From a virus (taxonomy: Duplodnaviria > Caudoviricetes): DNA of 64,000 nucleotides. This document shows positions 19,121 through 64,000 of this stretch, one piece after another. Both the position numbers and the translations under genes were made by a program. The DNA is taken from positions 22,006-86,005 of IMG/VR virus record IMGVR_UViG_3300020049_016712, one strand, 5' to 3'. Under the pieces are notes generated by a model. The model ran no database searches and was not told the origin of the DNA. It saw nothing but the letters and a program-made list of their open reading frames with translations. Within the stretch, counting starts at the first letter, position 1, and each line of letters starts with the position of its first letter.

Positions 19121-19366
19121 ATGACCATCAAATTCAATCTTCCAGCAGGGCTCTTCGGAGCCCTCAACATCATCACCAAAGTGCGCGCCCTCGGTGCTTT
19201 CACCGAAGGCTGGCTCGAGGTCGAGGGACCCGAGGCCCTTTATGGGCGCGCGCTCAACATCGAGCAAAACGGCCAATGGGTCGAGTTGCCGAAAACCTTC
19301 CTGGGATGGAAGGGGGAGGTCGTAGGGATGACCCAGGGTTCAGGGTGGGAGGAAATCTCACTCTAG
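19121..19366 (+). CDS. Hypothetical protein (81 aa)
   Basis: Start revised to ATG 19121 after the leader AACGGAGCAAATCAA. Confidence 0.7.
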   Translation: MTIKFNLPAGLFGALNIITKVRALGAFTEGWLEVEGPEALYGRALNIEQNGQWVELPKTFLGWKGEVVGMTQGSGWEEISL

Positions 19367-33821: not shown

Positions 33822-34159
33822 TTGAATATTTGCCTACAAACCCTGGCTTAACAACCCAGTGCTCGCACCAGTTCCACAGCCCTACAGTGATAGAAATCAC
33901 ATTGCACAAACCGTCTTCGGCCCGATTAGCGCACGATGCGCAGTTCTGGGATACAGGCACTTCAACCTCACATTGGCAAAAATAAAGGGCCCTAGAACTC
34001 GCATCCTGGGGCCCTTTCAGGCTTTACCTGTTCTGTTCGGAGCAAACGAAACGAACCAGTCTTGGCTTCGCAGGTGACGCAAGCGAAGCGATTGCCTTAT
34101 GCCCTGAGTATTCCCCAGACTTGAAAAAACTCCTTTTTCACCTTCAATTTTCTTCAATG

Positions 34160-58727: not shown

Positions 58728-58756
58728 ATTATTACACAAACGTTAACAGTTGTCAA
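58728..58756 (-). promoter_or_regulatory. Sigma70 promoter with embedded GTTAAC box (copy 7 of the set)
   Basis: TTGACA-ACTGTTAACGTTTGTGT (17 nt)-AATAAT. Confidence 0.8.
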
Positions 58757-58763
58757 CGCCTGT

Positions 58764-59129
58764 TTAAACACCTGTTTCAGATCCGCCTGCATCGGCATCT
58801 TGGTCGCCCTCTTCCTCGCGCCGGTTCGCGTCGAACATTGCCGCCGCTCGGTAGATGTCGCGCAGGTCTCCCAGAGGCTTGGCCAACCCCAACCTCTTGG
58901 CCAGCGTCTCGACACGGCGACAGGCGTCCATCAACTGCACGGCCACCAGATTCCGGTATTCGTCGGGATCGTATTGCACCGCCATGCACTCTCCAACACC
59001 TCGGCGCGTCTGGAATTGACCATTCTCGGTAATCCAGCCGCGCTCGATTCGTTTTCCGCCAAGGGCATGGGTGACGACCTCTACGGGAATACGCCGAGGT
59101 TTTTTGCTTGTGGTCTTGATTTTCTTCAT
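58764..59129 (-). CDS. Hypothetical protein
   Basis: Start MKKIKTT (ATGA overlap). Confidence 0.6.
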   Translation of the reverse strand: MKKIKTTSKKPRRIPVEVVTHALGGKRIERGWITENGQFQTRRGVGECMAVQYDPDEYRNLVAVQLMDACRRVETLAKRLGLAKPLGDLRDIYRAAAMFDANRREEEGDQDADAGGSETGV

Positions 59130-59539
59130 TCTTCTACTCCTAAAAACCAGTGCAGGCCATACTCTCCACGCATCCCGTTCGGAAGCAGTCGGTAAATGCT
59201 CAGAACGTGCCGAATCGGAATAAACTCCGCGTTCTCCCACGAGTAAACCGTCGTTGGCTGAAGGCCTGCCACCTTGCTGAACTGAATGACGTTGATTCCC
59301 TCTCGGATCCGGGCCTTCCTGAACCGCTGTCCCATCGTGGACTCGGGCAGGTCGAGGAAATGGTCGAACGGCTTACCCAGAGCGATGGCCCAATTCCTCC
59401 GGGTTAGTTCGGAGGCGTTCAGATGGCCGTTCTCATAGAGGGAAATCGTGTTCACCGGCCTCCCGATCCGCCTCGACATCTCCTTTTGGCTAACACCGGC
59501 CTCGATTCGAGCCGCGCGCATCAGTTCACCAATGCTCAT
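59126..59539 (-). CDS. Double XRE-HTH regulator
   Basis: Two repeats: LMRAARIEAGVSQKEMSRRIG...ISLYENG and FRKARIREGINVIQFSKVAG...VYSWEN. Confidence 0.85.
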   Translation of the reverse strand: MSIGELMRAARIEAGVSQKEMSRRIGRPVNTISLYENGHLNASELTRRNWAIALGKPFDHFLDLPESTMGQRFRKARIREGINVIQFSKVAGLQPTTVYSWENAEFIPIRHVLSIYRLLPNGMRGEYGLHWFLGVEE

Positions 59540-60066
59540 TCCGACAACTCCTTCAGGATTTTGACAGACCTGGCCTTGATTCCCGGCCACCTTTCGATCA
59601 GGAACATCCAGGCTAACAATAGCGACGGGAACGGCTTGCGCCGCTTCTTCGTAATCGGAGTCGCTAGATACGCGCCATCGGAATCCGACCAGATGATTTT
59701 TCCAATCTCGCTGCCCTCGTAATAGGCCGCATAGACTCCCGTTCGCAACTCCTCGATTCCGTACTTGGTACGCCCGATACCGGAGAACAGAACCAGGCCA
59801 AGCAACCTCTCCAGTTCCATTGCCCGGCTTTCAGATTTCGCTCGAGCGGCGCGCAACTCACGAACATACTCTTGCTGCTGGTGGACGAAATCGTTCATCC
59901 TGGCGTATTCGTCGATGATGCGAAAATGCTCGTGGCAAATCGCCTTGGCAACGGTCTCATGGTCGGCATTCATCCAGGCCATGCGCAACTCCAGTTGCCG
60001 AAATTGCATTTCTGGCAACTTCGGCAACGGCATCATCTGGCCCCCTTCTCCGTATTTCTCGCGCAT
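59536..60066 (-). CDS. Hypothetical protein
   Basis: Coupled operon member; ends VKILKELSE. Confidence 0.6.
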   Translation of the reverse strand: MREKYGEGGQMMPLPKLPEMQFRQLELRMAWMNADHETVAKAICHEHFRIIDEYARMNDFVHQQQEYVRELRAARAKSESRAMELERLLGLVLFSGIGRTKYGIEELRTGVYAAYYEGSEIGKIIWSDSDGAYLATPITKKRRKPFPSLLLAWMFLIERWPGIKARSVKILKELSE

Positions 60067-60068
60067 GG

Positions 60069-60530
60069 CTAATGCTGTCTTTCCGGGCCACGGTAGTAGT
60101 CGGCAGGCGAGTCATGCTCAGATTTGGAGCGCATCGGAACCCTCCAATGCTCAGACAGCCGCTTGACCTGCGCGCCCGTGCGCTTGCCCTTTTTGCCATC
60201 CCAGGCGGGAATCTGATACATGGGCGCCTGCTTGGGCTTGAGGTCCGTCAGCCGGAACCCAGAATCATCGTCGACGAGAATCCAAGTGCGAGGCGAGCCG
60301 TCTTCCCGAGTGCCCGCCAAACGGCCCAGGCAGGTCCCAGGATTCGTTCCGTCTTCTAGTGGGACCTGGAAGGTGCCCGGTATCTGCAATTCGTTCCAGG
60401 CGGCCTCCAGGGGCCCCTGAAGGGCCTCTCGCATCTCCTCGGTTCCCGACCATCCATAATGGTCGGCAAACTCCGACCACAGCTCAACAGGGGTTGCCCC
60501 CTCCAGGATTCTTTTCTGCAAGCTATTCAT
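60069..60530 (-). CDS. Hypothetical protein
   Basis: SD GGAG; ATG ORF. Confidence 0.6.
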   Translation of the reverse strand: MNSLQKRILEGATPVELWSEFADHYGWSGTEEMREALQGPLEAAWNELQIPGTFQVPLEDGTNPGTCLGRLAGTREDGSPRTWILVDDDSGFRLTDLKPKQAPMYQIPAWDGKKGKRTGAQVKRLSEHWRVPMRSKSEHDSPADYYRGPERQH

Positions 60531-60590
60531 TTCTTCTTCTCCATTTCTGCCGAGCAGTGATCTTGCTCATATCGTTTGCTCCACTCCTCA

Positions 60591-60721
60591 GTTCTTCGGT
60601 GGCGCCACCAGGTCGGGCAGGCGAGGTCATGGTTGGGAGGCAAGGAACGGAACAAACGTATCGCCGCGCTCAACACTCCGCCAGCCTGCAACTCGGGCAC
60701 CTGGTGGCGCCACCGAAGAAC
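60591..60721 (-). ncRNA. Candidate structured RNA bounded by a perfect 23-bp inverted repeat
   Basis: 60591..60613 is the exact reverse complement of 60699..60721; internal complementarity; contains the antisense of the early-gene leader. RNA status is inferred. Confidence 0.5.
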
Positions 60722-60745
60722 CGCAAAGGGCCTTAGCCCCCTGCG
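60722..60745 (-). terminator. Hairpin without U tract after the 63-aa gene (attenuator-like)
   Basis: GCAGGGGGC-TAAG-GCCCTTTGC. Confidence 0.4.
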
Positions 60746-60754
60746 AATCGGAAA

Positions 60755-60946
60755 TTACTTGAGTTCCTCGATTAGGCTCGAGGCCTCGGAAACCGTCAGG
60801 CCTTTCAGCCAGTCCTCAACTTTACCCGAACGCTCGCGCATCGAGGCGCCGAGCTTCTTGAAGCTGGCGTCCATATACCGGGTCGAATACCCGGCTTTAC
60901 CAAGGAGGACCATCAGGTATGATACTTGCTTGCTAGTGGCTTTCAT
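60755..60946 (-). CDS. Small helical hypothetical protein (63 aa)
   Basis: ATSKQVSYL...LTVSEASSLIEELK; full conserved leader and promoter upstream. Confidence 0.8.
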   Translation of the reverse strand: MKATSKQVSYLMVLLGKAGYSTRYMDASFKKLGASMRERSGKVEDWLKGLTVSEASSLIEELK

Positions 60947-60981
60947 CGTTCGTTGCTCCGTTTCGTTTGCTCTGATAACTC

Positions 60982-61010
60982 ATTATTGCACAATGGTTAA
61001 CCGTTGTCAA
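60982..61010 (-). promoter_or_regulatory. Sigma70 promoter with embedded GTTAAC box
   Basis: TTGACA-ACGGTTAACCATTGTGC (17 nt)-AATAAT. Confidence 0.82.
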
Positions 61011-63551: not shown

Positions 63552-63758
63552 TCAGGACTTTTTAACGCCCAGGTGCGGCGCAGCAAGCCGACTGGCCTGA
63601 ATCGAGGACCGGGCCAGCACCGCCAGCTTCCCATGCGCAAGCTCCCAAACGTTGCGACTCAACTCCCTGGTTCCGCGCAGTTCGACCTCCTGGGTCGAAG
63701 CAGTCAGAACAACTTTGCCGTCTTTGTTCAGACTCGCGATGAAAAATTTCATGCTCAT
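63552..63758 (-). CDS. Hypothetical protein (68 aa)
   Basis: ATG ORF in the operon. Confidence 0.5.
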   Translation of the reverse strand: MSMKFFIASLNKDGKVVLTASTQEVELRGTRELSRNVWELAHGKLAVLARSSIQASRLAAPHLGVKKS

Positions 63759-63782
63759 GGGGTTTCCGGTCCTCGATTCATT

Positions 63783-63992
63783 TTAGCAGCCAATCACGTC
63801 GAACCGCCTGCAGAACGCGATGAACTTATACCGCTCGGTCGGCAAGCACGGGTCGAGCGATGACCACATGCGCAAGAGGCTGGCGCCAGCCTCGTCGGCG
63901 CGACCCTCCTCCTTGAGATAGAGCAAATAAGCCAGGAAGCGCATCTCCTGCGCGCCCATGCCCGAGTTCCTGGCCGTGTCCAGAACGGACAC
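63783..63992 (-). CDS. Hypothetical protein (69 aa)
   Basis: SD GGAG at the window edge. Confidence 0.5.
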   Translation of the reverse strand: MSVLDTARNSGMGAQEMRFLAYLLYLKEEGRADEAGASLLRMWSSLDPCLPTERYKFIAFCRRFDVIGC

Positions 63993-64000
63993 GATCTCCT

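Follow-up and report, generated by a model that had tools for sequence, protein, structure and literature searches.

Antisense RNAs that phages encode within the operons they regulate are, to our knowledge, a small and old set (c4 of P1 and CI of P4 among them), confined to enterobacterial phages. The c4 RNA is encoded ahead of its target, is set free when the operon transcript is processed and pairs over the ribosome binding site of the next gene; it is 77 nt long, is matured by RNase P and recognises its target through two short loops. The CI RNA of P4, like similar processed immunity RNAs such as that of N15, is a small RNA cleaved out of the leader of its own target operon, where complementary stretches of the same transcript serve as its pairing partners, and in P4 the outcome is premature termination of transcription, brought about through two flanking target sites. 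Intercistronic stem-loops also serve phages as processing sites: those cut by RNase III in T7 are multiple, measure about 20 bp and contain internal loops, and a perfect duplex of 23-24 bp is a textbook substrate of this enzyme. For P1, PMC8198154, citing Citron and Schuster 1990, places the C4 antisense RNA in one operon with icd and ant, and its binding site inside that immI region. The locus described here, from an uncultivated phage, shares with the c4 system of P1 and P7 the placing of an antisense segment upstream of the ribosome binding site it could occupy, on the same predicted transcript, and does so both in the phage (60658-60644 against 60590-60573) and in its one close relative.

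The window, that is, the whole 64,000-nt stretch of DNA that was analysed, comprises bases 22006-86005 of an 86,005-bp IMG/VR virus record with an estimated completeness of 89%; positions below are those of the window unless the genome is named. The two ends of the record hold the same gene segment in inverted orientation (genome 277-479 against 86005-85803, the latter being window 63798-64000; 92% identity over 204 bp), which could be explained by terminal inverted repeats, by an inverted duplication that has since diverged or by an effect of assembly at a contig end. All genes neighbouring the element lie on the minus strand. It occupies the gap between orf63 and orf153, 260 nt downstream of a consensus promoter at 61010 and with genes of the same strand on either side, and the next promoter of this type follows the HTH_3 regulator, at 58756. 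A minus-strand promoter at 61010 had been part of the original prediction, and a sigma-70-like sequence matching at 11/12 positions is found at 61010-60982. A transcript starting there would read, in order, a family leader, orf63, the small hairpin HP1, a single G and then the long stem with its interior, before entering the following features of the operon.

60982..61010, minus strand: operon promoter, sigma-70-like, 11/12 match with TG before the -10, of the TTGACA-N3-GTTAAC-N8-(-10) family
60947..60972, minus strand: family leader and SD of orf63, GAGCAAACGAAACGGAGCAACGAACG, then the ATG (from the family alignment)
60755..60946, minus strand: orf63, first gene of the operon, with a sub-threshold likeness to DUF3072
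60723..60744, minus strand: HP1, a small GC-rich hairpin of 9 bp with a 4-nt loop, just past the orf63 stop and one G before the long stem (from the folds)
60699..60721, minus strand: 5' arm of the long stem, in the RNA sense (from the inverted-repeat search)
60644..60669, minus strand: conserved island of the interior, GCGCGGCGAU followed by the anti-leader ACGUUUGUUCCGUUCC (from local alignment with the relative, contig L008)
60591..60613, minus strand: 3' arm of the long stem (from the inverted-repeat search); G60722-U60590 adds a closing wobble on the minus strand only
60573..60590, minus strand: cis leader and SD, with GGAG at 60582-60579; 18 contiguous pairs with the anti-leader, 5 of them G-U
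60523..60570, minus strand: 15-codon uORF opened by the cis leader, its TAG overlapping the orf153 ATG (ATGAATAG; read from the sequence)
60069..60530, minus strand: orf153, which accompanies the element in window and relative alike; Pfam, PHROG and fold searches gave no match
59126..60066, minus strand: rest of the operon, orf176 and the regulator, the latter an HTH_3 domain plus a second HTH-like region

The perfect 23-bp inverted repeat from which the original prediction set out is present as described: 60591-60613 and 60699-60721 are 100% complementary across 85 nt, and each arm contains the 12-bp palindrome GGTGGCGCCACC, the two palindromes standing 105 bp, or ~10 helical turns, apart. 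No perfect inverted repeat in the genome with a loop of up to 220 nt is longer, the next reaching 15 bp; no further copy of an arm occurs in the window at up to three mismatches (0 expected) or elsewhere in the 86,005-bp record. That second-longest repeat (window 63598-63612 / 63766-63780, 15 bp, perfect, 153 nt apart) straddles the start of a 68-aa minus-strand ORF (63758-63552): the upstream arm immediately precedes that start, and the downstream arm falls within the ORF. Folding of the element region, proposed at the outset as a check, gave structures far more stable than those of dinucleotide shuffles on both strands, at -97.3 kcal/mol (z -5.2) for the minus strand and -92.1 kcal/mol (z -6.4) for the plus strand, and the interior pairing of GCAGGC with GCCUGC that had been foreseen appears in the MFE folds. 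The inverted-repeat element as observed is real and clearly non-random.

In minus-strand RNA the stem measures 24 bp, made up of 23 Watson-Crick pairs and the closing G-U. RNase III requires uninterrupted double-stranded RNA of ~two helical turns, or at least 20 bp, and the stem supplies 23 Watson-Crick pairs and one G-U in the window and 21 and one G-U in L008; the phage record itself encodes no Ribonuclease_3 domain. A reading of the stem as an intrinsic terminator is disfavoured, as the window has no U-tract after it: the terminator scan lists none at the element, the stem being followed by UGAGGAGUGG in the window and by no more than UUUU in L008. The MFE folds also pair the stretch following the orf63 stop with a downstream SD in an outer closing helix, for which we make no claim because its partner shifts with the length of sequence folded. 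Comparison with Rfam, suggested as a check, led to no curated family. At the element no c4 match arose at E values up to 1, and the only match was to a miRNA-precursor model below threshold (29 bits against 53), which is a generic hairpin match; no family reached its gathering score anywhere in the window, and nothing relevant emerged in L008.

What lifts the element above a singular structure is its recurrence beside a related gene. A search of 5.8 billion proteins found a single close homolog of orf153, with 61% identity, on the 999-bp Logan contig L008, and the corresponding place on this contig, upstream of the homolog, is taken by a perfect 21-bp inverted repeat whose arms enclose 95 nt. 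The arms of the two share 17 columns and differ in ~9, mostly through indels, and each difference is mirrored in the partner arm; with the window and L008 as the only two sequences, this covariation is anecdotal. The 12-bp palindrome has given way in L008 to a non-palindromic GGTGGGCACC-type sequence while the repeat persists. Furthermore, the two interiors are unalignable except for one island, GCGC(U)GGCGA(U)ACGUUUG(Y)UCCGUU, which is identical at 22/25 positions and scores 31 in local alignment, where the highest of 500 shuffles scored 25. This island contains the anti-leader, which in L008 is the exact complement of GAAACGGAGCAAACG and forms 12 Watson-Crick base pairs with the leader of its own downstream gene. 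Both loci follow a common order of a GC hairpin after the upstream stop (at 248-288 in L008, one G ahead of its long stem), one G, the 5' arm, the island, the 3' arm, a U and the leader. The genes upstream are unrelated in the two, so the element travels with orf153 and not with orf63. From this alignment, the stem and the antisense-of-leader sequence both look to have been selected. For the regulatory-RNA reading of the original prediction the relative cuts two ways: the stem remains perfect despite changed arms and the anti-leader sits in the sole conserved island, but the palindrome of the arms is lost.

Wider searches added little to this pair. The exact arm had no match in viral contigs, neither the orf153 profile nor the element pattern retrieved anything from metagenome contigs, and nothing was found in the phage record database. 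The orf153 profile run against 1.84 billion representatives contributed one distant homolog of 162 aa, a gene without an intergenic gap, element or leader motif. Candidates that proved spurious were two viral contigs with paired palindromes (unrelated coding repeats), four viral contigs holding the 18-nt leader word (unrelated AT-rich contexts), one giant-virus polymerase gene matching the island pattern in viral contigs by chance, and three chance matches to a relaxed element pattern in genome contigs, none with an inverted repeat. A relative of orf63 (L005) proved to be a fused domain set in another context. Among the genes of the operon itself, orf153 has no match in Pfam, PHROG, the Atlas or PDB folds that would speak to its function, and its structure model has a mean pLDDT of 64; no homologs of orf176 were found.

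The significance of the island depends on the motif to which it is antisense. About a dozen promoters of the type TTGACA-N3-GTTAAC-N8-(-10) are distributed over both strands of the phage (for example at window 931, 3912, 18632, 29504, 50773, 58756 and 61010), and the fixed GTTAAC palindrome in their spacer looks, from the aligned promoters, like a common operator. A common leader of the type GAGCAAACGAAACGGAGCAAAC follows these promoters, the start codon coming after a further 3-7 nt, and the family 5' leader carries a tandem GAGCAAAC motif. Taken alone, GGAGCAAAC occurs 10 times in the window against 0.53 expected; most copies have a conserved promoter upstream and a start codon 3-7 nt further on. 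On the minus strand, 60658-60644 reads CGUUUGUUCCGUUCC, the complement of which is one transition from GGAACGGAGCAAACG at 668-682, in agreement with the earlier observation that the interior is antisense to the leader before 664. The same observation had listed a series of SD regions as further partners, and most of these hold: GGAGCAAAC is exact before 50710, 58692, 3973, 39891, 63422 and ~60570, while the site near 19121 is weaker, at 12/15.

Directly after the 3' arm stands a variant of this leader, GGAGUGGAGCAAACG, whose AUG at 60570 opens the 15-codon uORF. The uORF, MSKITARQKWRRRNE (window 60523-60570, minus strand), has a strong family SD, and its stop overlaps the start of orf153. In L008 the leader starts the orf153 homolog directly, and the arrangement in the window may be a recent change to the start region, to judge from the two sequences.

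It is this adjacent leader that the anti-leader fits best. A 21-nt core was scanned, ungapped and with G-U allowed, against both strands of the whole genome (~172,000 positions), and the top partner was the leader right after the 3' arm, with 18 contiguous pairs of which five are G-U. The leader before 664 came second with a run of 16, several other family leaders reached 13, and chance sites gave runs of up to 15. With a 27-nt probe in RNAduplex the leaders ranged from -25.8 to -29.4 kcal/mol, the cis leader lying at -27.3, values that fall within the extreme tail of the GC-rich genome background and not clear of it. The strongest non-self RNAduplex partner (-33.7 kcal/mol) lies at window ~1440-1490 on the minus strand, where two 8-bp helices flank an in-frame AUG at 1461; it is situated inside a 477-aa ORF and is probably due to chance. 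The anti-leader is less completely complementary to the leader common to the GTTAAC-type promoters than to the cis leader. As the ungapped runs of the other leaders lie near background and the RNAduplex energies of leaders do not stand clear of it, the case for a regulon controlled in trans is weaker than that for the adjacent leader. The suggestion that a whole early regulon is shut down loses most by this comparison, with 13-16 contiguous pairs at the other leaders close to a chance background of up to 15, and the alternative offered alongside it, a cis relation to the downstream operon, gains most, the adjacent leader being the best partner genome-wide.

The pairing carries information on strand as well as on target. 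Three features exist on the minus strand only: the closing G-U of the stem in the window and in L008, the 5 G-U pairs of the duplex between anti-leader and cis leader, and 4 G-U pairs in a weak, G-U-rich local hairpin that holds the anti-leader mostly paired in the MFE fold. The plus strand would have an A-C mismatch at every one of these positions, so that they favour an RNA of the sense (minus) strand, although the argument rests on few positions in two sequences and is modest (p estimated at ~0.01-0.1). The predicted cost of opening the anti-leader is low, at 4.6 kcal/mol for the window and 2.6 kcal/mol for L008. Neither stem has a G-U pair or a mismatch within it. Such perfection is more than selection at the RNA level requires, and quasipalindrome correction or recombination between the arms at the DNA level would also yield it.

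On the strength of these features we propose that the element is a structured part of the polycistronic minus-strand mRNA that would be transcribed from the 61010 promoter. HP1 would fold after the orf63 stop, followed by the 24-bp stem whose 85-nt top carries the anti-leader. The stem would form once the 3' arm had been transcribed, so that the downstream SD would initially be free and the anti-leader topologically caged; pairing in cis with the stem intact would need a threaded pseudoknot and is unlikely. The cis leader would meanwhile open translation of the uORF, orf153, orf176 and the HTH regulator. A host RNase III, the presence of which is assumed, would cut the perfect duplex of more than two helical turns, and three products could result: an orf63 message ending at HP1 with a protected 3' end, a stem-capped RNA of ~100 nt carrying the anti-leader, and a downstream message starting just before its leader. 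Once released, this RNA could base-pair with the SD of the operon it came from, and perhaps with other leaders, exerting a delayed negative feedback on translation. Such a scheme follows the logic of c4 and is also similar to that of P4 CI. Judged from sequence and predicted structure, the candidate post-transcriptional control element is probably real. That it functions as a sense-strand RNA whose anti-leader pairs with leader and SD sequences is a more specific claim, to which we give an even chance. If it is functional in this way, we lean towards the cis-encoded downstream leader as its main target, with a broader action in trans somewhat less probable.

The rival that best withstands these observations is a plain intercistronic hairpin, either a processing or stability structure of the kind found at T7 or lambda RNase III sites or a roadblock or insulator, in which the anti-leader island has no pairing role; the island could be what remains of the neighbouring leader copied in inverted orientation, or be kept for another reason such as protein binding. 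Such a hairpin would be expected to look like a long perfect duplex separating two cistrons, and HP1 is so placed that it could shield the 3' end of the upstream message; the partial burial of the anti-leader in the fold and the unexceptional energies of pairing in trans agree with it. It is less easily reconciled with the island being the sole conserved part of the interior and matching the complement of a motif whose function is defined at other places in the genome, or with the cis leader being the genome's best partner. Moreover, a stem of this kind is found at no second gene junction in the 86 kb, which argues against a general processing device like the T7 sites. We regard this explanation as possible but unlikely.

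An explanation at the level of DNA would make the inverted repeat a recombination site that acts as a small invertible switch, or a cruciform, or two binding sites for protein, and the leader-like interior of the plus strand into a DNA motif, for example an extra operator-like copy. Arms that stay perfect in two diverged lineages are as expected from homogenisation of DNA, the palindromes 105 bp apart are separated by about ten helical turns, and both strands fold equally well. Yet L008 retains the repeat but not the palindrome, where conservation would be expected of paired operators, and the variation in arm sequence and in interior length (85 against 95 nt) speaks against a site for a sequence-specific protein; the wobble pairs, for their part, favour sense-strand RNA. 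Invertons of the fimS type resemble the element in having a perfect inverted repeat that flanks a short intergenic segment near regulatory genes. They differ from it in that neither orientation of its interior offers a promoter or a usable SD plus start codon, in that no serine or tyrosine recombinase (Resolvase or Phage_integrase domains) is encoded in the 89%-complete record, and in that 85 bp would be very short for an invertible segment. A role in DNA is accordingly doubtful, and the element is better sought in the sense-strand RNA proposed above.

The genome holds further components that bear on RNA-based control. A second anti-leader unit lies at window 33978-34095 on the minus strand and consists of a 7-bp hairpin (GCUUCGC/GCGAAGC), CAAGAC, GUUCGUUUCGUUUGCUCCG, a strong hairpin and UUUAUUUUU; its GUUCGUUUCGUUUGCUCCG is complementary to the family leader and is placed in a predicted 12-nt loop. 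A simple scan found no sigma-70-like promoter for this unit, which has the appearance of an independent small RNA or of a lone crRNA-like unit, and its existence suggests that RNA antisense to the leader is a recurring device in this phage. Outside the window, at genome 414-2102 (minus strand), is the gene for a Cas12u1/Cas12f-like protein (PADLOC E 1e-95) with degenerate hairpin-linker-CGAC units upstream of it, and at genome 14344-18410 (minus strand) are type IV Csf1 (8e-22), Csf2 (6e-46) and DinG (1e-43). The nearest homolog of this DinG (40% identity) has no promoter or leader upstream.

These genes raise the alternative that the anti-leader is a guide for an RNA-guided DNA binder of the phage (Cas12u1/Cas12m-like or type IV), the stem being a structure for its maturation and the leader-bearing promoters being silenced at the DNA level. 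The record does encode the Cas12u1/Cas12f-like protein together with Csf1, Csf2 and DinG, and the separate unit at 34095-33978 combines a hairpin and an anti-leader with a terminator. Adjoining the element, however, inspection by eye found no repeat like the units upstream of cas12 (GCCN-N7-NGGC-N10-CGAC) or like the CAAGAC hairpin of the 34-kb unit, and 23-bp inverted repeats match no crRNA architecture known to us; L008 is too short to show cas genes. We hold a guide function for the element to be very improbable. A bolder combination would have the stem-caged RNA, cut by RNase III from an early operon, and the terminator-ended unit at ~34 kb act together as a leader-directed shut-off, either blocking translation of a leader-defined gene set or guiding non-cutting CRISPR effectors to silence its transcription. 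We know of no phage for which a programme-wide switch encoded as an anti-RBS RNA has been described, and we offer this combination as a speculation that is more probably wrong than right by a wide measure. Last, the original prediction had named insertion of a MITE as an alternative, and, terminal inverted repeats around a short non-coding interior aside, this or any other recent insertion is scarcely credible for an element that is single-copy in the genome, has no visible target-site duplication and no copy in viral, metagenome or genome collections, and occupies the same position, with diverged arms, in a relative whose adjacent protein is 61% identical.

Set against the systems with which we began, the proposed sense-strand element with its anti-leader combines familiar parts in an unfamiliar way. 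It has no similarity in sequence or structure to the c4 RNA of P1 and P7, and in place of two short recognition loops and maturation by RNase P it presents a perfect 23-bp stem that suggests RNase III, a single anti-leader of 15-18 nt and a target motif common to many promoters. In contrast to P4 CI, it has no visible pair of flanking targets and no terminator, and the processing enzymes would differ. With the RNase III hairpins of the T7 early region, the lambda N-leader and sib it shares the form of an intercistronic stem-loop within an operon, with a duplex long enough for cleavage that could alter the translation or stability of the flanking cistrons; unlike the T7 sites, the stem is unique in its genome, is perfect and bears a large structured apical part carrying an anti-SD. 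Should only the modest reading hold, the locus would still offer a clean, conserved RNA structure that couples processing to the translation of a regulator operon. A target motif shared by many leaders means that one small RNA could in principle time a whole class of expression, and the presence of non-cutting CRISPR effectors and a second anti-leader unit in one genome makes this phage a good place to seek RNA-based self-regulation. No curated family includes the element, and the most fitting description is that of a variant on the operon-internal antisense RNA theme of phages. If the proposed mechanism is true, that theme would have been invented independently in an unrelated, uncultivated phage, with both the signal for maturation (a perfect two-turn stem) and the target (a family-wide leader) different from those of c4 and CI.
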